DNA from: Marsupella aquatica
Taxonomy: Eukaryota > Plantae > Marchantiophyta
Assembly (NCBI GenBank): GCA_973895155.1
Contig: OZ316892.1
Coordinates: forward strand, 12,030,238 to 12,094,237
Direction of reading: 5' to 3'
Length of the DNA stretch: 64,000 nt
Shown: positions 26,150 through 64,000 of the stretch, piece by piece
Layout of the letters: every line of letters starts with the position of its first letter
Position numbering within the stretch: position 1 is the first letter of the stretch
Translations under genes and position numbers: made by a program
The notes under the pieces: model-generated
What the model was told of the DNA's origin: nothing
Seen by the model: the letters and a program-made list of their open reading frames with translations, nothing else
Database searches by the model: none

Positions 26150-27299
26150 ATGTCTTCATCTTCTGAAATCTCCACCACAGACTCGTCCTCCTCTGATGAA
26201 GATACACCACCTCCACCTCAACATCACACGACCGCACCTCCTCCTCGCGGTCCACCCCGTCAACTTTGTGAATGTTCCAGATGTGTGGGTCAGGTTTCCC
26301 AAAAATCTTACATATGTGCCCAACATATTGAGAGATATGGGCGTTGTGGACGTCATACGGCAGGGGCTTCTTCATCTCATATGGTAAGTGTTATGCCTTA
26401 GTTTTCCTACCCTATTCCCATTACTCAATGGTTGAAGGTTTGCAATTTCACACCTACTTTTGTTTGTTTTGGTTTCGGTGGAATAGGTATCCAATAGGCC
26501 TAGACCTGCGGCACAAGCACCCTATGTCCCATCACAAGGTGTTCTAGATGCTATAGGCAATGCATTCTCAAAAGCCTTGGGTCTAGCAAGGCCCACCAGT
26601 CCTAGGGAAGTTGGGGTTGAGGCTATTGTCCCAAGAGGGAGAAAGCGTTCCAAGAGGCGGGCCCGAGGGGATACTGATTTGTACAAGGCAGTGGTTACGG
26701 GTCGGTGGGGTGATTGTGAGTTCACTGGCAGATGTGTCCCTATCATCAAGGACTGGGATCCTGAGACTCTTGGTTTGCCACAACAGCTTTCCTACGGTGC
26801 GGAGGTAGAGGTTTGGGGTAGACGTTGGGTTATCAAACCTTCCACAGTTGGGGATAAACATGGCTATGGATTTTTTGCCTGTGAGGACATCATTGTGGAC
26901 GCCGAGAGTGGTAGAGGTGGACGCGGCCGAGAGGGGCCTACTTTGTTTCCTTATGGTGGACCCATCTACAAGAGAAGACATTGGAACATGATCCTTGCAC
27001 AACACCCTGAGTGGAAGACTTATGCATTGGACATGGATACTTTTGATGGAAACACTAGAAGGTATAGTGAGCAGCGTGTCATAGATGGGGACCCCATACG
27101 GACTGGGAATATTGCTGGTTTCATAAACAGTACCGTGGGGACTCGCCCTAAGCGTAGGCAAAATTGTGAGTGGGTTTTCATTGAGGGTCCTCCGCCAGCA
27201 CCTTATGGCCAGACATATCATCATGACCATTGCCTAGTTGTAGCAACAAGGACCATTAACTCAGGGGATGAGTTATTTACTCAATATGAGTGGGATTAG
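26150..27299 (+). CDS. Two-exon SET-domain protein (348 aa) with an N-terminal transposase-associated Zn motif, inside CACTA 1
   Basis: Exon 1 26150-26383 (CECSRC..HIERYG; donor GTAAGT, phase 0); acceptor AATAG| before 26487, in frame. SET motifs: IKPSTVGDKHGYGFFACEDI, PYGG, IDGDPIRTGNIAGFINS, NCEW, ATRTINSGDELFTQY. Confidence 0.85.
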
Positions 27300-27475
27300 G
27301 GTTAAGTTAAGGGTCATAGGTGGTATGTTGCATATCAAAGGACACTACATATGGCCTTTGGCCACATTTTGTATTTGCACCACAACCAATATTATTTCAT
27401 TTTTGCACACCCCTAGCCCATTTTTGTGTGTGTTCTCTTTGCAATATAACTTTCAATTGTTTGCTTTGTTTTTAG

Positions 27476-30400: not shown

Positions 30401-30961
30401 ATTTTGATGATTATTACATTAATGGTATCTTTTACAGTGTAATAAAAATTTGTGGGTTTTGTTAATTTCAGGGTTTCTTCCCTTGATGAGAAGAGGGGTC
30501 GTACTTTTGATTGTGGAGTTCAAGGGGAATTTTCTCAAGACTCCAGAAGCAGCCGCCATGACAGGAACATTGTTAGAGATGTTGTGCCACACTATGGGAA
30601 GATAGAGGAGATCTTGGTGGTATCATATGACAACCATTCAAAGTTTGAGGAATATGTCTTCAAGTGCAAGTGGTTCAAAGTGAACCTTGTTGGTCAAAAT
30701 TGCACTGTACTTCAAGATGAGAGTGGGTTTACACGGTTGAAGACAAGTGCCACTAGTGTTCAAGCATCTCATTGGCAAACGTCAGAACCATTTGCTTTCC
30801 CATCACACTTGGAGCAATGTTTCTACATTCCATACCCCTTAGACACCGAGTGGTCAATTGTCATCACCTATGTGCCACGTTCTCGTTCCATTGTTTCTGA
30901 GAAGCCAGATGTTATTGTATCAGACCTAGATGACCTTGAGGCCGATGAGGACCAAGTGTGA
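27476..30961 (+). pseudogene. TnpD/Tnp2 transposase of CACTA 1 (Transposase_21, DUF4218, DUF4216 regions), disrupted
   Basis: HACVNDC..C..C, GLASDGVSP, MHDYPG, LDPMHIEGN, LKTHDYH, PPSFFDCQVHLLVH, WMYWLERYM, FKCKWF, EPFAFPS. Introns 28649-28765 and 30224-30471. Stops at 27869 and 28187; frameshifts near 28425 and 29935. Probable exon 1 is 26150-26383. Confidence 0.92.
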
Positions 30962-31959
30962 GGGACATATTTATATGCACTTGGGTCCAGCCTAGACATT
31001 TGTTCATGTTATATTTGATTTGTTCATGTTTGGTGATATAAAAAAAAGGATTGTCTATATTTATATTTGCCATTCACTTTGGAATGAGTCATACTCATGA
31101 CATATGTATTGTATTGTTTTATTGTGATCACTTGTGAATTTTACATGCAACTTTCTATCTAACCTTTGTTGCTCAATATAACTTTATTTCCTACTTATTC
31201 CATAATTTTCATTCTCACTCTCGTGTTTCCCTCCTCCGTGGTACGTTTGTCCCTCCTCCTCCCTTCCTCTTTCTCCTCCCTCCTTCCTCTTCCATTGTAC
31301 TCCCTCCCTTTTCCATCCTTCATTGTACCTCCCTCCATCCTCCCTTCCTCTTCCCTCCTGCCCCATCCATATATTGGACCATCCACCCTCTTCATTGTCT
31401 CACCTCACAATAATCTTAATTTTTAGTTTGCAAACAATTTGCGAAGCTCACAAACTCTCACCGGACTCGCAATTTCTATGAATCTTCTTGTTTCTCAATA
31501 TTTCCATACTACACTCTTTGCACACTTGTGATGCAAAATCAATCACAAATTTCATATTTTCACCGTTTCGCAAATCTTTCATCCTCCGACATTCTTAAAC
31601 TTGTCAAACAACTACTATCGCAAAACATTTTCAATCCAATCTTCTTCGCAAATATTTACATGAGTTAGTTTCAGAGTCGGCGAGCGATTTTTCCATCTTC
31701 GGAAGGCGCCTTTCTATTCGACGCGTTTCGGTAAAATTTGCAAAACCACGTACTTCGCAATTTATTAGCGATATAATGTACTTCAGCTATTATATTTGCG
31801 ATAGGGATAGAATCGCAAATTGTGATGCGGGTTGATTCGCAAAATATGCAAAGCGCCGCCCATCGGAAATACAAGAGCGTCGACAAACATACCTTCGCAA
31901 AAGTGTCAAATATGTTGTAGTGAGTAGAAGTAGGATGGGTTTGTTATTATCAATTGCGT

Positions 31960-35384: not shown

Positions 35385-36960
35385 AACAAGGAGGCTCGAT
35401 TCCATATTTGTCATAGTTGAGCTTGGATATTCCTTACGACCTTTGATCCACCTCCCGTAGCTTGATCTTGTATATCCACTTGCTGTCCACCACTTGCTGA
35501 CCCTTAGGCAGCTTAACAAGCTCCCAAGTTTTGTTGTCCTTCAGTGACTGCATCTCTGTTTGCATTGCTGCAGTCCACTTCTACTTCTCCTTTGAAGCAC
35601 TTGCCTCATCAAATGAAGAAGGTTCCCCTTCTTCCAAAATTAACGCATCACCCTCATCATCAGCTGCAAAATCGTCCTCTTGCAGTTGAGATGAATCAAC
35701 CCACTGTCCATACCTAAGAGGAGCGCATACAGTGCGACCAGATGTTCTTCTAGCCGATGACTTCGGTTGAATTACGTCTACTGGTACAATTTGAAGCTCA
35801 GCAGCATCTATTTGCTGCTCAGCAGCATCAACAAACTCCTCTTGTTCCTCTGACACAGGAACCAGCTCCATACTTGGAGCACCTCCTTCTCTCCAATCAT
35901 GCACTTCATGATCAATCTCCCCCTCAACAAGATCCGAGATATGAGATTTTCCTTTGTCAATACGGGAGACCTGAGTATTCTCCCCCTCCTTCAATAATCT
36001 AGATTCATTGAAGGAAACATCCCTACGGACAAAGAGCTTACAGGCAATAGGATCCCATAGCCTGTAGGCCTTCACACCACTCTGATACCCAAGAAAAATA
36101 CATTTCTTGGATGTAGGATCCAACTTGGTCTTATTTTGCTTTGGTGTGAGAGCATATGCATCACTTCCGAAAACTACCAAGCCATGATAGTCTGCTTGCC
36201 ACTTATAACGCATTTCAAACGTCGTTTTGAAATTGATTGCACTAGAAGGAGAAAGATTTACCAAATAAGCTGCAGTATTGACAGCTTTTGCCCAAAATTC
36301 TTGTGGTAAACCTGATTGGCTTAGCATACTCCGTGACCGCTCTAATAGTGTTCGATTGAGCCTCTCAGCGACACCATTCTGCTGTGGAGTATAAACTATG
36401 GTGAGATGACGAGTTATCCCCTGTTCTGCACAGTACTCTTCAAATTCTATTGAAGTGTACTCCTCACCGTTGTCTAACCTCAGACCCTTCACCCTGGTAT
36501 CCAAACACTTAACCGTGTTTCTCGTTTGATTCTCCACTTGGGCCTTTCGTTTTGTAAAAATGGACAAGACATCAAACTTATGCGTCATGAAATAAATTCA
36601 TACAAATCTCAAGTAATTGTCAATAAAAGATACATAGTACAATTTTCTAGAATGTGAAGGAGTCGGGGATGGTCTCCACACGTCACTATGTATGTACTCA
36701 AGAATCGCTTTGGAACAATGAGTTTCAACACCAAAAGCACGATGATGTTGCTTTTCAAAAATGCAATGCTCACATAAATCCAATTTACAAGATTGCAAAT
36801 CAGAAATGAGCCCATTCTTTCGCAAGATAGTCGTGAATGCCATAGTTGAGTCATTTTCTCGTGAGACTTGGTTACATTGGCCTCTCCATATACTATATTG
36901 CCCTGTAGCACATACAAATTATTCTATCTGCTCCCCTTCAAAATCATTGTCTCTCCCAAC
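35385..36960 (-). mobile_element. Ty1/copia pol fragment (GAG-pre-integrase, integrase, start of RT)
   Basis: LWHSRL, CEHC, IHSDVW, LRLDNGEEY, YTPQQNGVAERLNRTL, KLDPTSKKCIFLGY, EPSSFDEA, then W..AMQTEMQSLKDNKTWELV. Integrase precedes RT; stops and frameshifts present. Confidence 0.9.
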
Positions 36961-37150
36961 ATGACTTGAAGTTCTCCATCAATTACTCGCCATTGATGAC
37001 CATTCACTAGTACATTTTATCTCCTTTTTCCGATTCTCTCCACATCGGATGCCTTTGTAAAATAAATTTTGAAAAACCATACATCCGATACTACTAGCAT
37101 CGCAACATGCCATTTTAATAGTATCGGATATCGACAATCGGACTTCTATC

Positions 37151-37303
37151 GGAAAGTCCGATGGTGGGAGAATGGGAAAGTCCGATGCTAGGAGAATGGG
37201 AAAGTCCGATGGTGAGAGAATGGGAAAGTCCGATGCTAGGAGAATGGGAAAGTCCGATGGTGAGAGAATGGGAAAGTCCGATGCTAGGAGAATGGGAAAG
37301 TCC
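37151..37303. repeat. 24-bp minisatellite with two strictly alternating variants (48-bp higher-order unit)
   Basis: GGAAAGTCCGATGGTG(G/A)GAGAATG alternates with GGAAAGTCCGATGCTAGGAGAATG; 6 full units plus a partial one. Confidence 0.9.
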
Positions 37304-38320
37304 AAAGCAATCAAAATGGGATATGCATTTCAGCGGACGCGACATGCTCAGGTCACCCATCTCTTCCGATCCTTTAATTGGGTTCTACTTTCATTTGGAA
37401 CTATGAGCTAGGTGCCCATTTCCCTTGACATGTGAACTCTTCAAATTTTCTCAACTAATTGGTCACCCATCCCAATTGCTATTCCTCCAACACACTAGTA
37501 GAAACCGGGGGGTATTTAGACCCCATTAAACGACTATTCAGTACCGTATAGGACTTGGAAACGACTGGGAAGGACTCCAGTCCTTTATAGGACTGCGAGT
37601 CGTATGTTTTGTTACTATAATCAACTGAGTCCTTTATAGAACTGGTTTATAAGTCGTTTAATAGATTGGATTTTCAGTCTATTTTAGTCTTTGTGTGGGT
37701 AGCTTTGGTGAGTCGTTTTCAATCTTTTATGGGCTGCGATGGTGAGTCGTTGGGAACGACTAAAAAGGTTATGGAGGGTAGTCTTTAAATATACTTTGTG
37801 GGGTATGTATAAGTCTTTCATGTCAACTGGATATGAGTGATGAAGACCCCACTATACTACTTGGAATGAACCCACTCTTGTGCACAAATAACATATTGCA
37901 TTCATGTTTTATTGTGTACTTGGAATGAACTCACTCTATAAGTTCACCATTCATTATGTTAACATTAGAATACATAGTTTCATAAAGCCATCTTCTATAC
38001 CATGTACACTAATATGAATTCACAGATTCAAACTTCATAGACTACAAAGAAGGTCACAAAGTATTCCTCTATACCATACACACTAATACTGAAATGATAC
38101 AAAACAGATTCAAGTATCATAGACAATCACCATAGAGCCATAGTTTGACATCAATCACTTGTTTCATACATACAGAATTCAGAAATATCAATGTCACACA
38201 CAACGGCTCCTTCATCCTCTTTACCAAATGGAAAAATTGGTACAGATATGTCTTGGATCTTTCCAAGGCAATGTCAAAATGTGACACAATTCACATGATT
38301 CTATCTACACTTGCATTCAG

Positions 38321-41300
38321 TCACTGCAGACTAACACACTCTGATGGCCAAAGCACAAGAGATCCTACTGCATCTGCAATTATTTCCTGAGGTGGATCAT
38401 CGTCTCTATTCGGAAATGGCAAATTACAATCAGATACAATCACTGTAGTCAACAACACTACTACATGGTCATCCGGGACCACTTTGCCATGGAATTTTGC
38501 ATGGTCCGGTCGCAAAATGCCTGTACCCACACATACCTGCGAGTCATCCTCCCATGATAGAAGATTATGGACTGGCTCTGCTGTGGCTATCACCTCCACC
38601 TTACCCTGGTTGTTTTTCTTGGCTTTCCTGGGTGGCTTATACATGACATTATTCATACCTTGGTTGCGAGTCATGACTTTGGCACGAGTGTTTTGTGCTG
38701 GTGATCGAGAATTGGCTACACTCTTCTTCAAAGAATCTGCATCCATATTTGACACTTCTGATTGTGTAGCAGGATTTCCCTGCGACATCATCTCAGTATC
38801 TGCCAACATTGTACTTGCTTCAATTGAAGCATCTACAATCTTACTTGCATCCAATGTTGCTCCCAAGTTTCGACGTCGCTTCACCCTGCTCCCACTTGGT
38901 TGAGAGTCTGTCAACTCTGCATCAACTACAATTCAGTGTCATGTCCAACATAAGTCAATCACTCATCACATGTGCTAAATGTACATGTCACCAACCACAA
39001 AGTTGTCACTATCTCCTTACCATTATGAACAGCCTTCTTCCCCTTCTTTGCCATTGCCATATGCTCCATGTCTGCTTCTGTTGATCAATAAACACACCAC
39101 AATATTCAAGTTGAATCTATTAACCACTGAATTGTTTCTCAACATTCATATAGAGGAATTTAAAGCATCAGCTTACCTGATACCTCCTTGGCTATGGTCA
39201 CTGAGGCACTGGGCACATCTTCTTCATTATTGCTCTTTGAATCACCTGATACATCAATCATGATGTCACTTCAGATCCCAGTTCATCCAACCAGTTCTTA
39301 CAGAAAAGATTACCTCCAACCGGCTTAAGCTTCACAAAACTCCATGCACTTTTCAAATGTAATGTACTGGATCATAGCAGGTTACCTGTCTCAGCAACCT
39401 TCTTGCCCTTCTGCTTACTGATTACAGGGTCCTTCTCTGCCTCCACTCTTCTTGCATTCAAACCATTCACTCAATTCATGAAAACTTACTTCTAACATTT
39501 GAACATAGGACACAATGAACAATGGGCCGGTGTCATTTCCATACCTGTGTCAGATTTGCCAATTCCCTTTTTTGTTAACAAGGGCACACTTTGTACAATG
39601 TTGCCCTCATTGTTTGGTTGGGAACCACCCAATTTTTCAATCACAAGCTTGAAATTAGATTCCACTGATGCAAGAAGGTTCGCTACAGATGCCTCCACAA
39701 TATCCAAACGATCAGCCAATTTACTTTCCACTCGAGGGAGTCCACACTCTAATGACTTCAACCGTTCACACATCTCTGTGAGAGTTGTAACAGTTCCCTG
39801 TCATAACACAACTTACATATCTCAGATAACTGTCCCCAAGAACTGGTTGCTTACTTCCTACTACATTTCTTTCTGATGCTCAAGGCCAAATAGTCACAGA
39901 ACATACAGAATTACAACATAATCACCTGTTTGGAAGTTACACTTGTCACCTCACTCCTTTGTTTCATGAACTCCTCTCTCACTTCTTGTGCTGATGGTTC
40001 TTCACCTGTCAATTTCTTCTGCAGTCCACATCAACATACATATGAATGAAACCAAGTGTTGATTGTCAATGAAAATGTAATAATGGTAGCAAGATGATAA
40101 GTTTGAGGCTTACTATCAGGCATGTCACTGCCTTACTAATTGTTCTTTCACTGGAGCATAACTTCCTCTCCCAGCCTGTGAAAGGTGTTTCACTTTGCCT
40201 CGAGCATTTGACATCAGTTCACTCTTGCTCTGTCCAGCCTCCGACATGAACCCTTTGATTAACCATGTCCATTGATCCAGTTCCAATGATGGGGGTGGTG
40301 GCATTCTCCTGTTAGAACCATTGTCTATCCACATCCTTTTCAACCTATGCCTCTCTTGTTTCAAAATCCTCATTGCATAATCTGATATGCAATCTTCAAC
40401 TGGGCCCTTACCATCATTACCAACATACTCCCACCGTTCAAGAATGTCCTTGCAGATAGCAGCCCAATCAGCTTTGTTCTGACTCCTAAACTCTGTAATG
40501 CTCAAATCTAACCAACGCAATACTTCTCCTCTTAGGTCAGAATGCCAACGGTTCTTACCATCACATGTGGGAGTTATCCAACCTTCGGAATTCACTTCTA
40601 CTTTACCAAATTTGTTATTGTCTCCTGCCTTGGTACTCCCTGAAGCGCTACTAGGTGTCCCTCCACGGCCTGGTGTCCCCCCACGGCCTGGGGTCCCTCC
40701 ACGGCCTGATCTCCCCCCACGGCCTAGATTGCATTGTCCAAACCTCCCTGGAGTCCCTGCACATTTACAGGATCCATTTACAGTCACTTACATTAGGTAA
40801 GTATGAATCATAAATCCCGCTGCCAAATATACAGTGGACTTCAGAGCAATTCTGCAATGACCAAGTTACCTCTCCCTTGGCGCATAGATGGTTCTGGACC
40901 ACCTGTCCTATTGCTTTGTCTTGATGAATTAGGGGCATTTCTCCCGCCTGTGAATGATTGCCTCCTATCTGAACGTGGATGGCCTTTGTTGTTTTCGTGA
41001 TTGTCCCAATCAGAGTCTGCATACCAACAGGTACATGCCACACTCATGGACCTGTAAGATAAACTCTTTGCCCTAGCTACACATCAGATAAGTGCATATT
41101 GAGCTAAATCTCTACTACCATCACAAAATCACTAGCACAAGGCACTTACTTGTCCAATCATCCTCCTCACCTTTCCATTGCCCTCTGTACCCGTCTCTAC
41201 CACGCTCTGGGTGTTCATATTCATCCCATCCATCTTCTGCTCCATCATAGTCATCATCATAATTATCAGGCGTCCCTTGCCAATAACTCTGGCTCCTTCT

Positions 41301-41492
41301 AGGGTATGGATTATGTGATTTCTCTCTAGCTGCCCACCTACCTGGGACTTGATGAGGGCCCTGTGCATCCTGCACAGGTGCATTTTTCTGTGAGCCCCCT
41401 GCATCTGGGTCTCCATCCATATCCAATCTTTCCTCTTCACCCCACTCTCCAAGCCCCATGTCTGTCTCCATGTCATCACCCTCTTCCCCCAT
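38321..41492 (-). CDS. Multi-exon TnpA-like protein of CACTA 2 (Ptta/Transposase_24-like plus C-terminal TNP1/EN/SPM-like domain)
   Basis: PPPSLELDQW..SEAGQSKSELMSNAR..SQAGRGSY (40125-40787); VGTG..FHGK..VVV..LPFP..DAVGSLVLWP (38321-38914); acidic and RGG-rich N-terminal exons. The exact exon chain is not fully resolved. Confidence 0.7.
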
Positions 41493-41669: not shown

Positions 41670-44600
41670 CTATTGCAAATCATCAACCTCATCATATTCC
41701 ATTTGCCCAGGTTCATCATATGTCTCTCTCAATGTTAAGGGGATGTAGTCAGTCCCTGCCCGAGTTGGAAGTACAGTCTCATGACTAGGATGCTCGAATG
41801 CAGCATGGTCATCCAAACTGAACTCTACTTTACTTCCATCCATCCGCCTGTTCCGTGCTTGGCTATGGCATACCACCCTCCAACCATGTGACTCCTCCAC
41901 ATCTGCAAAGAAAGCCTGTTCAACTTGGCTAGGGAAAACAAAAGGCTCAGACCATTCTGGTACTCTGGACCTAAAATTGGCCAACAAGAACCCATCATGA
42001 TCACGCTTCATGGTGGCCCTTGGTCTCTGCCACTCTGATTTCACCCATGATCCCTTCATCAATATCACTGGGACACTTGTGTTACCATAATTCAACACCC
42101 AAATGTCGGTCAACTCCCACACGTAACCCATCTTCATCCACCCCCTCTGTTCTTCAGAGGTTCTCTGCTCAAACACAGAAATCAAACCACAATCATATGA
42201 TACACAATGGTCACCCTGCTCATCCCTCACTCGATAATGATTTCCATAAGCTCTCATCCGTTTGTAGGTCAGAATAGACAATCGTGGTGGCACAGATAGA
42301 AGATACAAATCCTTCTCCATATCTAGGTGATGTCTACTATGCTCTCGAATTGTCACCCGAATCCACTGCTCGAACTGTGGGAAGGGATCCTGCTGCCCAG
42401 AGTGTGCAGCTTTTTGCATATCATATTCCCTACAATATGAGGTACAGGCATAGTTAGGTCTAAACAACACATGACAACCTAAGATCACCCTTGGAACAGA
42501 CAAGAAGCATCACAACAAAGGCAAGTCAATTCAATCACTCACCTCCACCATGGTTGCATAGGCTCTGTGTTTGCCAGCACATATGAATGAGCCTTGTCTT
42601 GAATCGCAACAGGCAGCTGAACAGCACGTCCCACACCTTCAACAACCTCGCCACTCACTCCATCATCTTCACCAGATTTCCAAACTCTTGTCATAGCTTC
42701 ACCAGACCCAGCCATGTACTCTGTTAGGAATCCCAACGTCTCATCCTTAATGTACCCCAATGCCATGGAAGCCTCTGGCCTGTAGTATGTTCTCACATGA
42801 CCTTTCAACAACTTCATGTATCGCTCCATAGGGTACATCCATCTGGTACTGACTGGCCCATACTGCCCTAGCTCTTCTACCACATGGATTAGGAGATGAG
42901 TCATAACATCAAAGAAAGCAGGGGGGAAGTATATCTCCAAGTCACAGAGGACATAAGCAGCATCCTGCTTCAACTGCTCCAATCCTTGGGGATCCCACAC
43001 TTTCACACATATATGGCGAAATACATTGCACAGTCGAAGAATGACATTACGGACTGGTTTCTGCATGAGACCTCTGAGGCATAGGGGCAGAATGTGCTGC
43101 ATCAACACATGGTAGTCATGTGTTTTCATACTGCCAAGTTTATTCTTTGTAATATGCTTCTTGAAGGCACCAGCATAGCCAGAGGGCACTTTCAGACAGC
43201 TCAATCTATACAAGAATGTCTTCCATTCATCCTGTGTGCACACATAGGGAGCTTGGAACTTGAGAAGTACATTGGGATTGCTTGCATGGGGCTTCAACCA
43301 AAGGTGAGGGCGAATCCCCTTCTGTTGCATATCAGCTCGAACTGCTCCTGTATCTTTCTCACCCGACAAGAACTTCAGCAAGCTCTCACAAATATTTTTC
43401 TCAATGTGCATGACGTCCACATTGTGTTTGCTGGGCTCGAATTCCTGCACTCCACAAAGCAAAGAATTCAACAACAGAAACACTAATTAACCACATAGGA
43501 GGATTGTAACCAACATCAATCCACCATTGCTCCAATCTAAAATTGCAATCATACAAGGGCTGGAGGCTAAGTACATTACCCTCCAGTACTCCAACTCCAA
43601 GTCCATCAAGGTCTGTCTTTTCACACCGTGTTTCACCACTGGATCCTCAGGTTCTCGATCAGTGGCACTTCTCTTGTCCCAATCAGCCTTCCTGGCTGCC
43701 CACCTCAGGACTTGCTCTCTGGTGACCCTCTGTGGTGGGCCACGAAGCTCTGTTTTGTTGTTGAAGTGTGCAATTTGAGACCGTGTGTGCCTGTAAGGAT
43801 GATCAACAGGCAGATACCTTCTATGCCCCTGAAATTTCATACTGTGCAGGGCATGCGACCACTCACTTGTCACATTTTTCCCACATGGTGTGCACCCCAC
43901 ATAGCCCTTTGTCACTCGTCCAGATATGATGCCATGGCCTGGGTAATCTGCTATATCCAGCAAACAAATTGCATGCAATCTAAAGGGGCTGGGTCGAAGA
44001 AGCCCCTTCAGAACATCATGGGTTAACACCCCTTCTATCCACAAAGTCTTCCACTCTTCCACTGCTGGAGCCAACATGATATCTATGAATTGCTCGGTCA
44101 CAGAAGCTGGTCCAGGGATTAACAGCACCATCATGACAAAAAACCTCTTTGTAGTCATCCATGGGGGAAGGTTGTAATTTAGCAGCGTAACCGGCCAACA
44201 TGAATAACGGTTGTTTTTGTCTCCAAATGGGTTTACTCCATCCAGTGATAGACCAAATCGAAAGTTCCGCTTCTCTGCAGCAAACTGTGGCCACCTCTCA
44301 TCAACAAATTTCCAATGGTTGGAATCTCCAATGTGACGCTGCAGGCCATCACTGCTCTTGTTATCAGGAGTCCATGTCATCAGCTTGGAAATGGCAGGGC
44401 ATCTAAACAGACGTTGTAGTCTAGGAATGAGAGGAAAATGACGAAGAACCTTGGCAGGGTGTGTACATTTCCCTACATTCTTGTACCTGTGCTTACCACA
44501 ATGAGGGCATGTCAATTTATCTGCATGCTCTTTGCGAAAGAGAACACACCCATCAGGGCATGCGTCAATAGACACATAGTTCAGCCCAAGGTTAGACATC

Positions 44601-45370
44601 AATTTCCTAGCCTCGTACATATTTTTTGGAATTGAATTACCATCTGGTAACATATTTCGGCGCAGGAAGGTCAACAACTCTGTCACAAATATATTGGGAA
44701 CATTGTGATTGCCACAGATGTTCAACAACAACACGACAAAACCCAGCTTGGAGCAGTTCGACCCCTCGTAGATAGGAATGCAAGCTTCTTTGATGTGTTT
44801 TGGGCCCCCAAACACCCACTCCCTCTCTGCTGCACCTTCCCCAATGTCAAAGTCAGGTTCAGCTTGGCCGTCGCCAATGTGTGGCTGCGGTTCATTGTCC
44901 TCTTCTGATTCCACTATGTCGTAAAAAGCATCAAGGTCTTCAAAAATCTCTTGAACCATTCTTGGGACATCCATCCCACCGTCCTCAGTGACTGCCTCTA
45001 CATCTCCATCTTGGTCATCCACGTTCTCATGTTGGACCCCAGGACCATCCTCTGCACAGTCTATGTCCTGCTCTACGTAGTCTCTACGCCTAGCTGTATT
45101 AGAATCCACAAAGTCAGCTCTCCACTCTTCATCAGAGGAGTCTTCTTCTGCTGGTACATTCCAAACCCTCCACCGAGGGTGCCTTTCATGCCGCAGCAGG
45201 TGAAGGTGCACAGTGTTCAAACTCAACGACTTGAATCCTTGGCACTGTGTGCATGGGCATCTCATCCTCCTACTCCTACCTTGGGCGGCCCGGGCTTGTT
45301 CACGCATCCACAATTTAGAATCATGATGCCTAATCCTAAATGGGTTGTGAAGAGGCAACCTTGGAGCCAT
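41670..45370 (-). CDS. Apparently intact TnpD/Tnp2 transposase (~1150 aa, 3 exons)
   Basis: Exons 45370-43580, 43444-42543 and 42429-41670 join in frame. CPCTQC..HLHLLRH, DACPDGC, GLSLDGVNPF, IADYPG, DVMHIEKN, MKTHDYH, PPAFFDVMTHLLIH, WMYPMERYM, EPFVFPSQVEQAF. Confidence 0.93.
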
Positions 45371-45696
45371 CACTATACACACGCACTCAGCACCCTGTCA
45401 TTTTATTATGCAAGTGAAAAATACACTTCCTGTTAAGGATTTCACCCCCGACTGTACTTGCCAAAATACGTAACGTTCCAAAAAAACAAAAAAACAAAAA
45501 ATATAGGTGCCTGAGTCATGTACCTATTCTCAAGTGAATGAGACAAAATTCCTAAATGTTTGAGGGTGTCAACTCCTCCGCTGTCCTCACATGTACTGCC
45601 TCTGCACGTACATCCATGACCATATCAGAGTCCAATCATGTATAGTCATAGACACAAGTGCCAGGTGCGAGACCGGTGTGAGATGTCCTCATCTTA

Positions 45697-46170
45697 CTAC
45701 CACATCAAATACGGATACCAATCCTGTTGTCGATGCCACTCAGCCCTGAGGTACTCAGGCATGTACATTAAGTCATCAAGGTCTAAACCCTGCTCATGCC
45801 ATGGTGGTCTTCGATCCGTGCCTACAAGCAGTGGCAGCAGTGCCCTCCATGGTGCACATGTTGCTACCAAGTCCCTCCACTGGGTACTAATTAGTCTATA
45901 TTTGCAGATATCTTGTGCGCCAGACACCACAAGAACCCTCGGCCAGACATGTGTAAGAACTATATCATCTGCCAAATCAGGCAACAAGGAACCACCTACA
46001 GCATCGTGCTTGTCTAACTCATCTGCTGAAAAGTAAATGTCCTCTTCCGACTGTGCATCCTCATTCACCACAGCATTCACAACACATCCAAGGTCTACAG
46101 GCATTATCTCGGATGGAGCTACACTCTGTCTGGTTACCAATCCACACAAGTAAGCCCAAGCAGTAGCCAT
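45697..46170 (-). CDS. Small F-box-like protein (CACTA 2 cargo)
   Basis: SLLPDLADDIVLTHVWPRV..DICKYRLISTQWRDLV fits the F-box consensus; no C-terminal substrate-binding domain recognised. Confidence 0.65.
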   Translation of the reverse strand: MATAWAYLCGLVTRQSVAPSEIMPVDLGCVVNAVVNEDAQSEEDIYFSADELDKHDAVGGSLLPDLADDIVLTHVWPRVLVVSGAQDICKYRLISTQWRDLVATCAPWRALLPLLVGTDRRPPWHEQGLDLDDLMYMPEYLRAEWHRQQDWYPYLMW

Positions 46171-46406
46171 GCACGATGCAACCCGTAGGAGGACCCTACA
46201 TAGGGCCTGACGGTCTGGAAGAGGCAGCATACCCACCAAAGTCTTCAGCCAAACAGAGCCCAGCAAGTAGATTCACAGTCACACCCCACGCAGCAGGAAA
46301 CAACAATCACTTCAACTGCGACCAACCATGACAAGATGAGTTAGTTCAAGGATCACATTTATTACAAAATTGTGATTTATACAAAAATATGAGGGACTCC
46401 TACTCC

Positions 46407-47255
46407 TCACTCTCTCCCACCTTTGCTAAGCATACATCTCCGCTGAATCTTGGAGGGCCAGGCCTCAAAAATATCAAAGTCCCAAGCATTCTGTCGCTTC
46501 CCTCTAGCTGCTGATTCCAGAAGCCAATCAGGGGAAAGCACCCAAAGATTGTTGTTCATGACAAAATCACGCACTGTTGTCTTAAAGAATTTTCTGCATA
46601 TTTTCATGTATGACAGACCTACAACATGAGTGGAGGTTTCTGTTAGACTCTCCTCCACTGTCCCACCTAGCTCAACAACTATAGACTTGTACAATCTGCA
46701 CTTAGTCTCCCCAATTCCTTCTTCTGCAAATACCACACTGAACCCCTTCATAATGGTATTTCTCTCCTTGCCATGCTCATTCAATATAGCATCTGCACGC
46801 ATAGGATGGTGTCCTATGTTGACAACAGGTCCATATTGGACAGAAGCAAAGTTGGGTTTCTCTGCCACTGCTTCATAGGCTTCCTTTTCAGCCAAAGCCT
46901 CTGCAGTGGCCTCCTCACTCTCCCACAACTCATATTGCTCAGTACTCTGTACACACCTATGTTTAACAGAATCGGTCAGCCAAGAGACTTCAACTACTTT
47001 TAGACCTTGGTTGGTAATGGCAGAATCAATGAAGGACCATGACCACTTGTTCATCACATCCAGCCATGTCCCCGCAACAACATGTGTAGTCTGTGGAGTG
47101 ATGTCCTTGACTTCAGTCCCATGGAACTCTGAGAATCGTTTTTGTACGATTGGCCAACTCACTTGGGTGAACCCATAGTGGCCAGGAATCAAAATGGCTT
47201 TGATTCCAGCCAACAGAGGCGGGTGGTCAACCTTTGTACGTTTCCTAGAGGCCAT
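46407..47255 (-). CDS. Tandem BRCT-domain protein (CACTA 2 cargo)
   Basis: Two repeats: LAGIKAIL..HG..ITPQTTHVV..VVEVSWLTDS and MKGFSVVF..LGG..LTETSTHVV..VLSPDWLLES; N-terminal RKRTK NLS-like motif. Confidence 0.85.
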   Translation of the reverse strand: MASRKRTKVDHPPLLAGIKAILIPGHYGFTQVSWPIVQKRFSEFHGTEVKDITPQTTHVVAGTWLDVMNKWSWSFIDSAITNQGLKVVEVSWLTDSVKHRCVQSTEQYELWESEEATAEALAEKEAYEAVAEKPNFASVQYGPVVNIGHHPMRADAILNEHGKERNTIMKGFSVVFAEEGIGETKCRLYKSIVVELGGTVEESLTETSTHVVGLSYMKICRKFFKTTVRDFVMNNNLWVLSPDWLLESAARGKRQNAWDFDIFEAWPSKIQRRCMLSKGGRE

Positions 47256-47853: not shown

Positions 47854-48534
47854 TCAAAGCCAAGAAATGTGATCTCTCATGGGAGTGTGCAAAGTAGGAT
47901 CTATGGCATGGCGATGACAATAGAAGATCCATCGATCAACACCATGTGCAGAGTGATCATAGATGTGTCTGTCACAAGCATAGCCTTCTGCTTGACGCTC
48001 CTTCAAACAATGAAAGTGCCACATGGTGGGACACCTAACACAGTGGACTATGTCCACCCAGAAATCTTCATCGTGCTGACCACATGCCTTGCACTTATGA
48101 AGTGGGCAAGCTGTGGCAAGATCGGGCAAACATGAAAAACAAAAGAACCTCACACAATATCTGTCAGGGCATTTCCTAACAAGTGGTGGAGCATCAACAG
48201 AGCCCTCATAAGACCCCAACTTCCCACACTGTGCACACTTAGCCTGCTTCTCCAAACAATCAGTGCACATCCAGCCTCCCTGGTGTGCTGACGGGAGGCC
48301 CACCCCTGGACAGTTGTTTTCTGCAGCAAGGTCAGACTCTGGGTTGAGGTGGAAATGCCTCATGCAAGGGCCCTCACATATGGCTAAGCCACCACCATCG
48401 TCACAAATGGCACAACAATGAGCTGCCTTCTGGAAAATCTGACTTGCGGAGAAGTTACTACCATCTGGCCCAACTACACCTGTGTTGCTCACCTCTATCC
48501 CCCGCTTCTTGGCTCGGATTTTAGGGCGTGCCAT
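47854..48534 (-). CDS. Stand-alone EDM2-type atypical PHD-finger cassette (CACTA 2 cargo)
   Basis: CAICDDGG.L..CEGPCMRHFH, CAQCGKLGS, CPLHKC..C, CVRCP..WH..CL and YCHRHAIDPTLHTPMRDHI closely follow the PHD region of plant ENHANCED DOWNY MILDEW 2 proteins as recalled; basic N-terminus. Confidence 0.8.
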   Translation of the reverse strand: MARPKIRAKKRGIEVSNTGVVGPDGSNFSASQIFQKAAHCCAICDDGGGLAICEGPCMRHFHLNPESDLAAENNCPGVGLPSAHQGGWMCTDCLEKQAKCAQCGKLGSYEGSVDAPPLVRKCPDRYCVRFFCFSCLPDLATACPLHKCKACGQHDEDFWVDIVHCVRCPTMWHFHCLKERQAEGYACDRHIYDHSAHGVDRWIFYCHRHAIDPTLHTPMRDHISWL

Positions 48535-49203
48535 GCCTACGCATGAGACAGATAGTACAATTTAGCAGAGTGCACAGACAATACAATTTAGTGTAGTGTA
48601 CAAAAAGTACAGTGTAGCATATAGACTAGAGTGGCAATTGCTACTGCAATGAAATGTTCACACACATGTGCAGAGTAGACATACTTTTTGGTTTGTTGAG
48701 CCCACACTAAAAACTGATCCCCTCGTACAATAGCTCCACCTACACCTCAATTTTGTGGCTATGATTCACCAAAGGAGATCTGCAACAAGATTTAATGCAT
48801 TTGAATCACATATAACAGTCGTGACATGTAAAACAGGCATTTTTTGAACAGGATTGGTATCAAGCAGTGTGATCAGGGTTGTAATTTATACATCCTAAAT
48901 AGGCTATGATAGTGAATGAGACAAATAAGTTAGGCATAAATCACTTTTTCCAGGTTATCACATGGCCCATTAATTCCAGTCTTTGAAAGGAGACTTTTAA
49001 GTGAGCTTGCTAGCCTCTTAAATTAGGATATTGTACTTAGTGCAGCCATAATAGGATAAGTTATGTACTGTTGACCGTAAACCCTGGACCCAAAATTGCT
49101 CATAATTCAAAATCTTAAGTAAATATCCTCTCTGTTCAAGTCAAAGTGTTAAGTTATAGGTCAATGGTCTCTGGTCTGTGCATGCGGTGTGACAAGTGGT
49201 CTT

Positions 49204-49776
49204 CTACAGCGTGTGATCCAAACATGTGTAGACACCAAAGTGACCGGTGGTGGGGTCTGGGAGGGCAAGACAAGTGACATTGCCAGGCACACTGCAGGAT
49301 GGCGAGTGGTTCCAGATGATACATTGTGCTCTGTGAAAAAACCGACATCCAAGAGAACGGTCATCCAACTCTAGGCCAGAAGCCCTACAGGCAGGACAGT
49401 CATACTGGCAACTGTGCACACACCCTTGGGCCCTAATTTGTGGCGGGTCATGTACGAGAGACAAAAATACCAAGGATGTTGGGAAGGGTGGAGAAGCAGG
49501 TACAGGGCGGCTGTAGTTATTCCTGGCAACAATTGGGTACTCAAAGTACCATGCAGACTGGGCTGGAAGGATCCCAAGTCTGACATACTCAAGGCGCAAC
49601 ATCTCTGCCTTGCGTGCAAGCCGCACATGTTCAGCATTGCGGGTCCTCACCATAAGTGTTGCTTTTGTGGAGTGTCGTGTGTTCACGTCCTCTGATAAGC
49701 ACCTTCGATCAGCAAGGTGAGCAGGAGCTGTACTTGCCTCACCAACAGCAACCAACCTTAAATTATCAGTTCCCAC
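49204..49776 (-). CDS. Possible further cargo ORF, Cys/His-rich C-terminus, unknown function
   Basis: 190-codon ORF co-oriented with the cargo row; non-ATG start in the track, so it would need an upstream exon; no recognised domain. Confidence 0.25.
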   Translation of the reverse strand: MGTDNLRLVAVGEASTAPAHLADRRCLSEDVNTRHSTKATLMVRTRNAEHVRLARKAEMLRLEYVRLGILPAQSAWYFEYPIVARNNYSRPVPASPPFPTSLVFLSLVHDPPQIRAQGCVHSCQYDCPACRASGLELDDRSLGCRFFHRAQCIIWNHSPSCSVPGNVTCLALPDPTTGHFGVYTCLDHTL

Positions 49777-52700
49777 TCACTGTGTCATTCCATTGGTTCC
49801 AGCTAGGGGTCACAATGTAAACATAGCATGAAACACTCTTAATCAACTTGCTTACAAACTACAATATCCAGAAAGAGTGAAAGTCTCACCCTCCAGTGAG
49901 CAGTAGAGAGGTAGTTCACTGGATGTGTTGATGTGCAGTTAAACCTCCACTATTGCTTACTTCTGGTGTATGCTGCTCAGTCGGAGACATATTAGTAGCA
50001 GCAAATTGCAAATAATGGCCATAAGCAAACCGTGAGAGTTTGCAGAATGCTACGACAACTATTCATCCATCACAACAGTGCTCCACAGGAATGAAACCAA
50101 GCAAAATTTGGTGACCTCGGCCAATGACAAGGCCAATGTAGTTCACAATCCTTGACCGATCAGGATATGGATTGGAATTACAATTAGTCAGCTCTTCTTC
50201 TTTGTTTCCTAACTCTGGGGGAAATGAGCATGACAAGGGAATTCTCTGAGAAATAGAAGTGCACAGGGAAAATGAAATTGACTCATTGAGCTGCGCAAGA
50301 TGACCACTACAGCATACTTGGACAGTAGGTTCCGCAATCCATAAAATCCCCGTCTGACGTATTTAAGCAGTGCAATTTAAGCAGTCAGATGCTACATAGC
50401 AATTAAGCACAAAGGCTACTTCATGTCTGTTTACATAGAATTTTGGATTGAAGTAATGAGAGCTATACATTTAAACTTACGGTGCCAACTCCGTCAGTAG
50501 TTGCTGAAAATGGCATGGGAAACACTGGTATGACAGGAACTCAAGGAAACATTTGCGGCAATGTCTTCACAGGAAAAGAAGAATTGCTAAGTACAGTATT
50601 CTTAATAGTAGTTTCGTTCTAATTCTGAAATCTACACATAGGACGGAAACCCAGGACATTTCTCATGAAAATTGAAGATCCATTCGACAACTCCATGACA
50701 GCCTATTCCGCATTGTGTCCGTCCCATGCAAGCAAGGGGTGTTCAGCCGAGCTTAGTCTAACCACGAATGATTGTTCTGGAAGCAGTTGCGATAATGTTT
50801 TGGTAATTTTCTCCTATATCCAACTCAGTAGCTCACAAACATGGCATTGGACCCATTAAAAAATTATACTTGCCATCATTCTCAACTGTATTACATGGCC
50901 CACACTGCTGATGTCCCTGACTCTTAAGGGAAACTCATCTCCTGGGCCAGCAACATCTCAGATTCTACAAAAATGAGAAACTGTGAAGACTTATTGAAGT
51001 CATATCCTGTGATTGTAGCATGTATGATTTGCTGGGACTACAAGCAGTTCTAGATCCTGCTGCACTTTATATACAACAGCAACCTGAGCTACATGAACTT
51101 GTTTTTAATAGACGTGCGTTTGACCACGGCTACAACTCCAAAACAATCAGTCACCCAATCAAATCATAACAAACCCACCCGCAAGCTGAATGTAGAGGAT
51201 AGAGATAGAGAAAATCACCGGGGCAATGAAGTTGGATCACAGGGTGCAAAACTAGTACTCAACAGGGTAAGACCGATCACAGCAAACAAAGCACAGAGCT
51301 AGACCAACAAAACTCCAGCAAAGATAGTGTCATGTCCATTTATTTGTAGGGAATGAAGTCGGATCGCAGAGTGTAAAACCAGTAGGGTAAGACAGATCAC
51401 AACAAACAAAGCTAACACAACAAAGCACATAGAGGAACAAAACTCCAGCAAGACATAAATTAGACCTCGCAGCTTTTTGACTAGCAAAGGGAGATAGTCT
51501 ACGCTTTCCATTGCTGGTCACAGCGCGACGGGCAATCAGGATGATGCCATGCCGAGTAGAAGAACAACAAAGCATTCTATAAAAAGCATTGAGGTTGGCG
51601 TTATAGTAAAAGTGGTAGTACTTCCAGTAGCGCGACCAACTCGCTAAGTGACAGTCCGAAGTAGCTTACCTCCGAGAAGAAAGCCAGAGCAGTTTAGCAG
51701 AAATCCCCAAGAAAATCCCCACTCTGAAGATGGTAAGCTTGCAGTTGCTCCCCCGGGTGCTCCCCTCAACCTCGCCACTTCTATTCTGAGCAGCGCAGGT
51801 CTTCTCCACCCTCTCACCTTGCACCTACTGAACAAGTGACCAGCACTATCCACTCCCACCGCAACTGTGGACGGTCCCTAAAAAAATGTAGATGATAGCG
51901 ACCAATAGACAAAGGATTACAGGCGTAGACCTGGCAAAAATCTTCTTCCGAAAAGCTTTCCTCAGCCCGATTCTTGTGCACATCAGAAAAAACTCAAACC
52001 ATTTAGAAATGAGATCACAGATTACTCTTGACAATCTAAAAAATGCCACAACCTAAGCACTCATAGCTCCGTCCCCCCATTCTAATTTCTCTGACGAGTT
52101 TGCCTTAAAGCACATCCACTCGCGGTTCAAGCAGATTCAGAATCATCATAGACAATAGAGTGTTCCACCATAGCCCACGGTAGGTCCACGACCATCATAA
52201 CCAACCCTCACACCCAGCTCCCTCAATACCCACAGCTCCGCCCAGCTCCGCGCCTACCGGGGTTTATTAGTATTGCTCACTTTTAAGAAAGGCAGTTTTC
52301 TCAAAAGCAGTCTAATTGCCTAGACGGCACTAGAAAAGTTGGAGGCAATATCACAGCGGAGCATTCTGCGTCTAAGGGCCAGCGACGAGTTGCAAAGGTG
52401 GTTTAACCTCGTTCTGAGTCAAGACTAAAAGCTTTAGATCCAGCCATTCCGCGATTCCTTAAAGAAAACCCGTGATGGACATGCAATGTTGTGCTACTGC
52501 AATGAACAGAGTAAGGCAATGCAGTGGTCATCGTAGCTATGAAGAAGAAATGGTAGTGGAAAGTCTAGCTCAAACAATGGAGTGTATGAATCAGCGCTCA
52601 AGAAGGTCACCTGAAAGTTGCGCGTACAGCTTGAAGATGGAGCAGCCCAATCGGCTTCCAATCGATGAGCAACGAGCACAACTCCACTGTGAGTAGACTG

Positions 52701-59999: not shown

Positions 60000-62900
60000 G
60001 TTAATGCATGAAATAGTTGGGTATTCAGCATCAATGACCCCATTTTCTGTCATTGTATGGAATTTATGACACAACACACAAATGAGCCAATGAGGAACTG
60101 CATCCCTCCAAACAGAGCCTTTCCATTGTTTAGGGTTTAGGTTTACACTCTAAACTCTAAACACCTCTACCCCTAGCCCTGGCCAGTTGGGTCATTTTAA
60201 CCTATTTCCTCAATGACAGCATGAGGGACTCCTCTAATGACCCCATTTTGCGTGATTTGGTACTCCCATATCATAATCACAATGACATTATAGGAGGTCA
60301 TTATTTGACATTTCTGACGTAGAATTGTTCACAAATGGCCCAATGAAGCACAAGTACCTCCAAAAAGAGAACCCCCATATCCCAAAGTGCAGGTTTATGC
60401 CACAACTAATGGATGGAGAATAGTATACAGTAGAGTGTACTGCACCCGGAGGCAGGTTCCCAGCTCTATGTAGTACCACATTTATGACTCCACAAGGGAC
60501 CAATGTAATGACCACAAGTCTGGTCATTTGACCTATATGACATCCTATATGACCGTTTCAATGACCCTATTTGTAGTCATTGGCATTTATGACACAACTT
60601 TGTTCCAAAATGACCTAATAAAGATTACACTACCTCCCAGAGTGCCCCGTCACAATTTATTTGCAAAATATCCCCAAAATATCATATCCCCCATCCAAAC
60701 ACCATCACAAACATGACATAGTTAAATAGAAGGACCACAACCTTCCATTGGTGTTGCGCTACCTCTTGGAGAGAGAAAACAAATGGCTCGATTTGCCTTT
60801 GCAAATGATGGTATTAATCCTTGGTGACACTTTTGGCAAATCACCTCAAAGTTGTACGACTTGGGAATGATTTCCCCAAGGTTGCATCATGCCTTAAGTA
60901 AACATGAAAACATGTGTCCAAAATGTTCATGTAACTAACAACTAGTGGTTGGACAATGATGAGTATAGTGTCCCGCACCTAGTGGAGGGGTTACCACCTT
61001 CATGTAGGGCCCCATGGCGGGCCTCATGGCACATTGGGGCCCACCCAAAGTTCCTAGACCTAAAAGGGTCATTTCTACTGGTACATAATGACATCATGAG
61101 GGACCTGTCTAATGACCTCATATGCAGTCATTTTGTACAAATGACATCCAAAATGACTCCCAAAATGACCCTTAGTGTAGTCATTGGCACTAATGACACA
61201 ACATTACTCCAAAATAACCCAATGAAGATTACAACACCTACTCACAATGCCCCGACACTATTCATATGCAAAATGGAGTATCCCCATCAAAACATCAACA
61301 CAAAAATCACACACTTACATAGAAGGACAACAACCTTCCATTGATTGGTGACATTGCTTTACTTCTTGGAGAGACAAAACAAAAGGCTCAATTTGCCATT
61401 GATAATGATGGTATTCAACCACGGTGACACTTTTGGCAAATCACTCCAAATCTGTATGACTTGGGAGTGATTTCCCCAAGGTTCTATCATGCTTTAAGTA
61501 AACGCAAAAAGACGGCTCCAAAGTGTTCATGGCACAACTAGTGGTTGGACAATGATGATTATAGTGTCCCGCACCTAGTGGAGAGGTTGCCACCTTCATG
61601 CAAGGCCCCATGGCAGTCTAGGGCCCACTTCCAATCCTTAGCACCAAACTGGTCATTTATGTTGGTCCATAATGACACTATGAGGGACCTCTATAATGAC
61701 CACATATGCAGTCATTTGGTCCAAATGACCTGCAATATGACTGCCAAAATGACCCTTACTATTGTCATTGGCTTTAATGAACACCATTACTCGAATATGA
61801 CCTAGTGAAGATTACACTACCTGTTGGAGTGCCCCCTCGCATTTCCTTTGCAATGGAATAGAATATTCCCCACCCAAACACTGGCATAGATATGACACAG
61901 TTAAATAGAAGGACAACAACCTTCCCCTAGTTTTGCCCTACCTCTTGGAGAACAAGAAAACAACTATTATTTCACATGGTGAGACTTTTGGCAAATCACT
62001 CCAAAGCCGTATGACTTGGGAGTGATTTCCCCAAAGTTTCATCATGCCTTAGGTAAATGCAAAAATATGATTCAACATTAATTATGGTGCAACTAATGGT
62101 TGAAGAATAGTAAATATAATATCCCGCACCTAGTAGAGGGGTTTCCAGCCCCATGTGGGGCCACATGGCACTCTAGGGCCCACCTCCAGCACCTAGCCTC
62201 AAACTGGTCATTTATGTTTGTCTTCAATGACTCCACGAAGGACCCCCTCAAATAACAACAAATCCCGTCATTTGACTTATATGACATTCCATATGACGGT
62301 TTCAATGGTCAACCCTATTTGTAATCATTGGTATTTATGACATCATGTCATTGTTCACAAATGACCCAATGAAGGCCCTAGTACCGGGCCTAGTACCTCC
62401 AAAGAGAGCCCCCAATAGATTCCTTGCAAGGTTGGAATATTCCTCTTTCCTAAACCCGCACCCACACGATACAGGGAAGCACGACTCCCCTGCCCATTCC
62501 ATTGGTGCAGCACCACCTCTTGGAGAACCACAAAACAACCCTAAACCCCAAAGGTGCATCATGCCTTAAGTAAACACAAAAACATGTGTCCAAAGTGTTT
62601 ATGTCGCAACTAGTGGTTGGACAATGATGAGTATAGTGTCCCGCACCTAGTGGAGGGGTTCTCACCTCTATGTGGGGCCCCATGGCACTCTAGGGCCCAC
62701 CTCCAACCCCTAGCCCCAAAATGGTCATTTGTGCTTTTCCTTAATGACTGCATGAGGGACCCCTCAAATGACAATAATTCAGGTCATTCCGCTTATATGA
62801 CATGCAATGTGACCATTTTAATGACCTTTGTTGTAGTAATTGGCATTTATGACGGGCAATTGCTCACATATGACCCAATAAAGGCCCTAGTACCTCCAAA

Positions 62901-64000
62901 GAGAGCCAACTTTAGATTCCTTGCAAGGTTGGAATATTCCTATACCCTAATCCCGCACCCACATCATGCGGAGAAGCACCACTCCCCTGCCCATTCCATT
63001 GGTGCAACACTACCTCTTGGAGAACCAAAAAATAGGTTTTATTTGCCTTTGGATGTGATGGTATACATCCATGGTTGCACTTTTGGCAAATCACTCCAAA
63101 GTCGTACGACTTGGGAGTGATTTCCCCAAAGGTGCATCATGCCTCAAGTAAACGCAAAAACATGTGTCCAAAGTGTTTATGTCGCAACTAGTGGTTGGAC
63201 AATGATGAATATAGTGTCCCGCACCCAGTGGAGGGGTTCTCACCTCTATGTGGGGCCCCATGGCACTCTAGGGCCCACCTCAAGCCCCTAGCCCCAAACT
63301 GGTCATTTGTGCTTTTCCTTAATGACTGCATGAGGGACCCCTAAAATGACCACATATCCAGTCATTTGACTGATATGACTCTCCATATGACATTTTTAAT
63401 GACCCTAATTTTAGTCATTGGCATTTATGACGGGCCATTGCTCACATATGACCCAATAAAGGCCCTAGTACCTCCAAAGAGAGCCAGCTTTAGATTCCTT
63501 GCAAGGTTGGAATATTCCTATACCCTAATCCCACACCCACACCATGCAGAGAAGCAGGACTCCCCTGCCCATTCCATTGGTGCAGCACTACCTCTTGGAG
63601 AACCAAAAATATGTTTTATTTGCCTTTGGATGTGATGGTATACATCCATGGTTGAACTTTTGGCACGACTTGGGAGTGATTTCCCCAAAGTGCATCATGC
63701 CTCAAGTAAACGCAAAAACACGTGTCCAAAGTGTTTATGTCACAACTAGTGGTTGGACAATGATGAGTATAGTGTCCCGCACCTAGTGGAGGGGTTCACC
63801 TCTATGTGGGGCCCCATGGCACTCTAGGGCCCACCTCAAGCCCCTAGCCCCAAACTGGTCATTTGTGCTTTTCCTTTTAATGACTGCATAAGGGACCCCT
63901 CAAATGACCACAAATCCAATCATTAGACTGATATGACTCTCCATATGACAGTTTTAATGACCCTACTTTTAGTCATTGGCATTTATGACGGGCCATTGCT
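60000..64000. repeat. Tandem satellite, unit ~520-600 bp, about 7 copies
   Basis: Anchor ACTAGTGGTTGGACAATGATGA.TATAGTGTCCCGCACC at 60941, 61537, 62092 (diverged), 62609, 63187 and 63745; a further degenerate copy near 60405. Confidence 0.92.

Follow-up and report, generated by a model that had tools for sequence, protein, structure and literature searches.

This locus raises the question of why a DNA transposon should carry an intact gene that codes for little more than a histone-reader cassette, and what such a protein might do for the element. The gene lies in a 64-kb stretch of Marsupella aquatica DNA that was analysed as a whole (the window, to which all positions refer). By analogy with the accessory genes of other transposons, we see about an even chance that it is an old accessory gene acting at the chromatin level, likely protecting a repeated CACTA/EnSpm element from silencing.

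The open reading frame in question (PHD ORF) occupies positions 47854–48534 on the minus strand and is described here as a PHD-only, EDM2-derived ORF from its translation, Pfam matches, profile score, tree position and an AlphaFold2 model. The initial annotation had reported an intact, intronless ORF of 226 aa made almost entirely of a Cys/His cassette, and this is what we found. The frame reads free of stops through the C-terminus quoted there, followed by SWL and the stop codon, and the three zinc-finger units with their EDM2-type C-terminal tail (47860–48414, minus strand, approximately residues 41–225) make up 82% of a protein with 22 Cys and 16 His. As the ORF is colinear with the EDM2 cassette in the alignment, no intron is needed. 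Pfam recognises PHD-1st_NSD (residues 39–93), PHD_NSD (96–140) and PHDvar_NSD (148–180) in the correct order, with E values of 1e-5 to 6e-3 that are each below the curated cut-off, and a profile of 158 cassettes, mostly EDM2-type and including the ORF's own clade, gives it an E value of 1.5e-52 and leaves every other frame of the window unscored. A chance-ORF origin is ruled out by this Pfam order and profile score. The AlphaFold2 model from an 80-sequence alignment (mean pLDDT 87.8, pTM 0.82) supersedes an earlier one built from 6 sequences (pLDDT 56.7) and has pLDDT values <50 only in residues 1–22. Top fold-search matches of the model are PHD modules only, the best VIA-align match being the PHD-C5HCH of NSD2 (Z 5.4, rmsd 2.6 Å over 75 residues, a middling score); no solved close relative of the EDM2-type cassette was found in the structure and fold searches.

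That the ORF is borne by a transposon is upheld by its surroundings, as it lies on the same strand as, and upstream of, the Tnp2, DUF4218 and DUF4216 ORFs of a CACTA transposase, in a deep repeat with a CACTA end. Reading along the minus strand, on which all of these genes lie, the PHD ORF is preceded by a Cys/His-containing ORF of 149 aa from no known family (49204–49653), which falls in the deepest repeat bin in three of four public runs. It is followed by a 282-aa tandem-BRCT ORF (46407–47255, BRCT E 6e-14), for which there is one stand-alone homologue of 294 aa (P0190, 62% identity), and by an ORF of 177 aa that weakly matches the F-box (45697–46230, E 0.08). Then come the CACTA/EnSpm transposase (Transposase_21/Tnp2, 43487–45370, E 1e-59, also with Transpos_assoc), its continuation with DUF4218 (42539–43486), probably joined by splicing, and a further continuation with a Pfam match to DUF4216 (41670–42419). 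A predicted multi-exon TnpA-like gene (38321–41492) has many GTAAG donors and a weak Transposase_24 match in 40128–40787 (E 0.0055, below cut-off). The CACTA terminus at 37493–37800 on the plus strand, the 3' end relative to the element's genes, starts with CACTAGTAG at 37493 and carries short subterminal repeats; on the opposite side, contig depth falls about 5- to 6-fold at approximately 50200–50250. A fragment of Copia-type integrase (35581–36588, minus strand) and a 24-bp tandem repeat (37124–37345) lie just outside the terminus. The 149-aa ORF starts with a basic M-V-R-T-R, near the H3-mimic motif treated below without matching it; it was considered as a second, degenerate PHD and rejected, since neither profile scores it and it has no match in Pfam or the Atlas. 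In-frame joining of the F-box-like ORF to the transposase via the donor at 45697 was ruled out at the three nearest acceptors, read by eye.

Contigs from the public runs (four runs, three coded organisms) cover 30 of the 30 bins between 37 and 55 kb, and their depth is high and unbroken over 37.0–50.2 kb in three of the four runs, X5 being lower and uneven. In X1, window-like contigs reach depths of 1,817–2,073 across 39.4–45.6 kb (1,817–1,949 in the transposase), and a window-like contig inside the PHD ORF has a depth of 1,978 and 0 differences, next to rare variant contigs at 13–34. The stretch 47.8–49.6 kb is deeper than the transposase, and the PHD ORF region in X1 has 2–2.5 times the transposase depth when a second subfamily, approximately 87% identical, is included. 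We infer that the element is repeated in the genome, contig depth not being copy number. No intron-like joints occur among the listed run contigs, which has no bearing on expression. The linkage to a CACTA transposase is established for the window family alone, since the distant relatives lie on contigs of mostly 1–2 kb; L001, a relative described below, has no transposase beside it in its 1.9-kb contig.

The origin of the cassette was approached by sequence searches and phylogeny. Among 118 word-search candidates, five stand-alone relatives of the same size were found (36–82% identity), which share 52 invariant columns with the PHD ORF, the zinc ligands among them. A full HMMER scan with a profile of these stand-alone relatives gave 554 matches, of which the best 150 are listed. 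In this list the best-ranked matches are further short proteins, and below them come long proteins that are named EDM2 or are PHD proteins of liverworts, mosses and lycophytes, most of them about 1,200–1,400 aa long with the cassette near residues 220–430, and many with an RFD. A tail derived from the cassette alignment, YC..H.I..TP.RDHI, is common to the PHD ORF (P0001) and most of the long listed matches and is absent from four NSD-like rows. A word-index search at a longer setting confirmed two distant NSD-like proteins among 3,459 candidates, and EDM2 itself surfaced only in the full HMMER scan. None of 51 pattern matches in viral contigs was confirmed as a relative, and of 58 in metagenome contigs two were confirmed, a distant PHD (L002) and a true relative (L001, positions 529–1200) that is intronless, 41% identical to the PHD ORF and interrupted by a single premature stop near the N-terminus.

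The two trees were built on selections of 31 and 25 rows from the 158 cassettes. In the 31-row tree, eight short proteins form one clade (the TE clade) with support 100/100 and a stem length of 1.17, and this clade falls inside the streptophyte EDM2-like group (89/96, not starred), outside which remain a chlorophyte row and the NSD-like rows. The shared tail and this nesting identify the cassette as EDM2-type rather than an unrelated PHD, in agreement with the initial annotation, and the phylogeny against EDM2 and NSD-family PHDs which it had proposed as a check places the ORF with the EDM2-like proteins. The best sister of the TE clade in the 25-row tree is a group of liverwort EDM2-like paralogues (78/83, not starred), and AU tests of the donor do not reject a moss origin (p-AU 0.30), leave a Marchantia-type EDM2 borderline (0.056) and reject a vascular-plant EDM2 (0.005), all placements being trusted only as far as the long stem branch of the clade allows. 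Capture as such stands, and the recency that the word might imply does not: the event is ancient, with one long-branched stand-alone clade of 36–82% identity. The liverwort paralogues (P0015, P0018, P0020, P0028, P0032 and P0059) would be a candidate sister of the TE clade, in the best tree only; they share with the PHD ORF the lack of a methyltransferase-like motif, but unlike it they are annotated host genes of 280–770 aa with a long PHD2 spacer. The Marchantia EDM2-like protein MPTK1_2g00350 (P0017) is 35% identical to the PHD ORF over 217 columns. Taken by themselves, the relatives and the trees would point to a non-seed land plant as the host. Short, mostly-cassette EDM2-like proteins also occur outside the TE clade, in grasses and Marchantia (P0033, P0041, P0060, the P0045 cluster and P0059).

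Within this common descent, the PHD ORF departs from EDM2 in several respects. EDM2 and EDM2-like proteins have about 1,200–1,600 aa against its 226 aa, the N-terminal RFD is absent by Pfam, with only 40 residues preceding PHD1, and the C-terminal methyltransferase-like (ELP) domain described for EDM2 (PMC7529245) is likewise missing, as the ORF stops directly after the cassette. It also differs from EDM2 in being intronless and repeated and in having an H3-like N-terminus. The 12 residues before PHD1 contain a mean of 1.1 D/E in the TE rows (15 of 18 scored) versus 5.6 in the host rows (60 of 61 scored) and none in the PHD ORF protein (P0001), and the host Asp at −3 from the first PHD1 Cys has become Ala or Pro in the TE clade. 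Readers of unmodified H3 such as AIRE PHD1 contact H3K4 through acidic residues immediately ahead of the first Cys. Every one of the 11 matched TE rows has a PHD2 spacer of 7 aa, versus 14–37 aa (mostly 27) in 38 host rows, and PHD2 of the PHD ORF differs from that of EDM2 by a His-to-Cys ligand swap and a spacer shorter by about 20 aa. Because three defining features fail (the RFD, the methyltransferase-like domain and the acidic stretch), the PHD ORF is, on the features compared, a derivative of the EDM2 family and not a member of it. For EDM2, binding of H3K9me2 is described (PMC7472560, PMC7529245); with its other domains and the acidic patch gone, neither H3K9me reading nor a role in polyadenylation is to be assumed for the PHD ORF. 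The cassettes of NSD1-3 have Pfam PHD_NSD-family matches in common with it, although the NSD-like rows have no EDM2 tail and are placed outside the clade, and the PHD ORF has no SET or PWWP domain.

Decay of the ORF in most copies, which would have told against a functional gene, was not seen in the main copies: indels of at least 10% share are absent from the PHD ORF in the four runs, and the 40 best-supported of 92 substitutions, some of which share a codon, include no stop and no Cys change. Eighteen of these 40 are synonymous versus 21% expected (p 5e-4). Truncated or frameshifted members of the clade do exist (P0012, P0014, P0016 and P0048), as would be expected of transposon copies. The CpG o/e is 0.26 in the PHD ORF, 0.23–0.39 in the other ORFs of the element and 0.73–0.76 in the neighbouring host gene, a loss indicative of a long stay in methylated DNA. 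On these comparisons, the PHD ORF is neither a recent nor a decayed capture.

Codons 1–10 (48505–48534, minus strand) encode a basic, predicted-disordered N-terminus that begins M-A-R-P-K and fits the H3-mimic motif iM-Z-R-x-K, the start codon being assumed from the first ATG and the homologue alignment. It further has Ala and Lys at the positions equivalent to H3 A7 and K9 (H3 numbering). Among listed variants of the PHD ORF, codons 1–11 show three synonymous changes of three and codons 12–26 five nonsynonymous changes of five. A strict M-Z-R-x-K start is found in 9 of the 19 TE clade members with an intact N-terminal region and not in the other 10, after exclusion of three short rows that are truncated at the N-terminus and a fourth whose placement is uncertain, and in 3 of the 135 other proteins among the matches listed, with 0 of 116 among those longer than 450 aa; the rows are related, and p values overstate their independence. 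The nine motif-bearing clade members are mostly 34–61% identical to one another. The three outside the clade are short EDM2-like proteins, one named from a grass, that start M-A-R-x-K, and M-A-R starts are also present in several EDM2 proteins of non-seed plants. In humans, the motif is reported for 48 of about 21,000 proteins (PMC8166343), and the H3TMs described there (VRK1, PCLAF, BCL11B and others) combine it with disorder, as the PHD ORF N-terminus does, with the disorder predicted in the latter; they are human host proteins, whereas the PHD ORF product would be a candidate mimic borne by a transposon and with PHD fingers of its own. The enrichment of M-Z-R-x-K in the TE clade relative to its long relatives appears to be new here. 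The basic tail of the PHD ORF could instead be a plain nuclear localisation signal.

Three possible functions had been put forward in the initial annotation: read-through into the transposase cistrons, a decoy for the host complex and guidance of insertion. Under the first, the protein would act as EDM2 does, reading H3K9me2 and recruiting ASI1/AIPP1 to suppress proximal polyadenylation. The cassette is indeed of the EDM2 type, the AAE complex is described as suppressing proximal polyadenylation at RPP7 and IBM1 (PMC7529245, PMC7472560), and AATAAA hexamers are present at 46363, after the BRCT ORF, and at 45407, before the transposase. However, no AATAAA occurs between the PHD ORF and the BRCT ORF, and the RFD, the methyltransferase-like domain, the acidic patch before PHD1 and the long PHD2 spacer have all been lost. 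The splice-acceptor architecture into which this function was said to fit is present only as a possible, unproven acceptor TAG (48537–48539, minus strand) two nucleotides before the ATG, with three 26-nt repeats ahead of it (48546–48625); its spacing is near chance, as 18% of arbitrary positions in this DNA have a YAG no more than 8 nt away and 55% have one no more than 25 nt away. We consider a read-through role quite improbable. Still less can be said for a neutral Pack-CACTA passenger, an amplified EDM2 fragment with no protein function. Pack-CACTA capture is reported to be common (PMC13317346) and broken relatives do exist, but the zinc ligands are invariant across 36–82% identity, synonymous changes are in excess with neither stops nor frequent indels, and a long stem branch and shared derived features set the clade apart; such an origin is very improbable and largely refuted.

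Guidance of insertion would make the PHD ORF a targeting or transpososome accessory, its PHD fingers and the tandem-BRCT protein tethering the transposase to chromatin or repair sites for insertion or excision repair. The conserved tandem-BRCT ORF, co-located and directly upstream of the transposase, speaks in its favour, as does the predicted well-formed multi-PHD fold, and tethering by chromatin readers is known from other elements, such as the chromodomains of chromoviruses. The H3-like tail is left unexplained by it, though, and the depth of the PHD ORF in X1, 2–2.5 times that of the transposase, suggests no one-to-one tie, so that we regard targeting as conceivable but doubtful. The same excess over 47.8–49.6 kb could mean that the PHD ORF belongs to a separate repeat unit or a non-autonomous derivative, adjoining or fused with the CACTA element. 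No second terminal repeat or 3-bp target-site duplication was found within the 64-kb window, and none of the listed contigs bridges the PHD ORF and the transposase. On the other hand, window-like contigs have similar depths in both, strand and CpG loss are common to all the ORFs of the element, and a single X2 contig places 42994 next to 49215, as an internal deletion derivative would, though weakly, its shorter arm having just 22 bases; a separate unit seems unlikely. Among the options of the initial annotation the decoy would fit best, by way of an H3-like N-terminus that was not noted there.

The preferred reading, an old accessory gene acting against silencing, can be put as a possible mechanism. 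The PHD ORF product would be a small nuclear protein whose zinc-finger body docks either on chromatin itself or on one of the host's chromatin proteins, its specificity no longer being that of EDM2. Removal of the initiator Met would leave a free Ala-Arg-x-Lys tail, which could serve as bait for host writers or readers of the H3 tail or, as a switch, occupy the PHD of the same protein. Along with the BRCT and F-box-like ORFs, the PHD ORF might constitute the element's own chromatin kit, working like VANC and Kaonashi of Vandal elements but unrelated to them. A bolder version, which we put forward tentatively and would not expect to hold in full, is that the CACTA elements of non-seed plants carry the gene for a histone decoy, a re-specified PHD with an H3-like tail that soaks up or redirects H3K4 and H3K9 writers and readers, as part of a kit of chromatin genes upstream of the transposase (PHD, tandem BRCT and F-box-like, with SET in a sister family).

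Like VANC and the ULP1-carrying Kaonashi (KIU) of Vandal/MULE elements, the PHD ORF would be an accessory gene of a DNA transposon, these genes being partly of captured host origin; VANC is described as counteracting silencing, and ULP1 capture in grapevine CACTA families offers a parallel (PMC13317346, PMC2528002). The likeness is one of analogy and not of homology, as the PHD ORF has no Pfam match to VANC or ULP1 domains but only to PHD families, and unlike the Vandal/MULE accessory genes, it resides in a CACTA element and derives from a captured histone-reader cassette. According to PMC13317346, it is mainly Vandal elements from which anti-silencing proteins of plant transposons are known. 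We found no description of a CACTA element with a PHD gene of the EDM2 type, most subscription literature and repeat-database annotations lying outside the reach of our search. In the host, EDM2 deals with the heterochromatin of transposon origin that lies within genes; that a transposon has retained the reader module of this protein under selection suggests that a part of the host surveillance has been turned to the element's use. The PHD ORF would also be a naturally occurring, minimal EDM2 cassette, and since its protein is small, predicted to be well-folded, encoded by a single exon and easily expressed, it becomes directly testable whether CACTA elements counter silencing and whether a transposon mimics histones.

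A second, decayed CACTA element (about 26100–31000) has, immediately upstream of its broken transposase, a SET-domain ORF (26487–27299, plus strand; PF00856, E 2e-5, above cut-off). This is the position that the accessory ORFs hold in the first element, which suggests that chromatin-related cargo in that place may be a pattern in this genome. A further CACTA terminus begins at 53884 with different subterminal repeats and probably represents an inserted third family. The transposon cluster is adjoined by a host gene on the plus strand (10066–14141) with NB-ARC and ARM/HEAT-like parts in an NLR-like architecture, and the last part of the window (60000–64000) is occupied by a tandem array with units of approximately 520–600 bp and internal inverted repeats.
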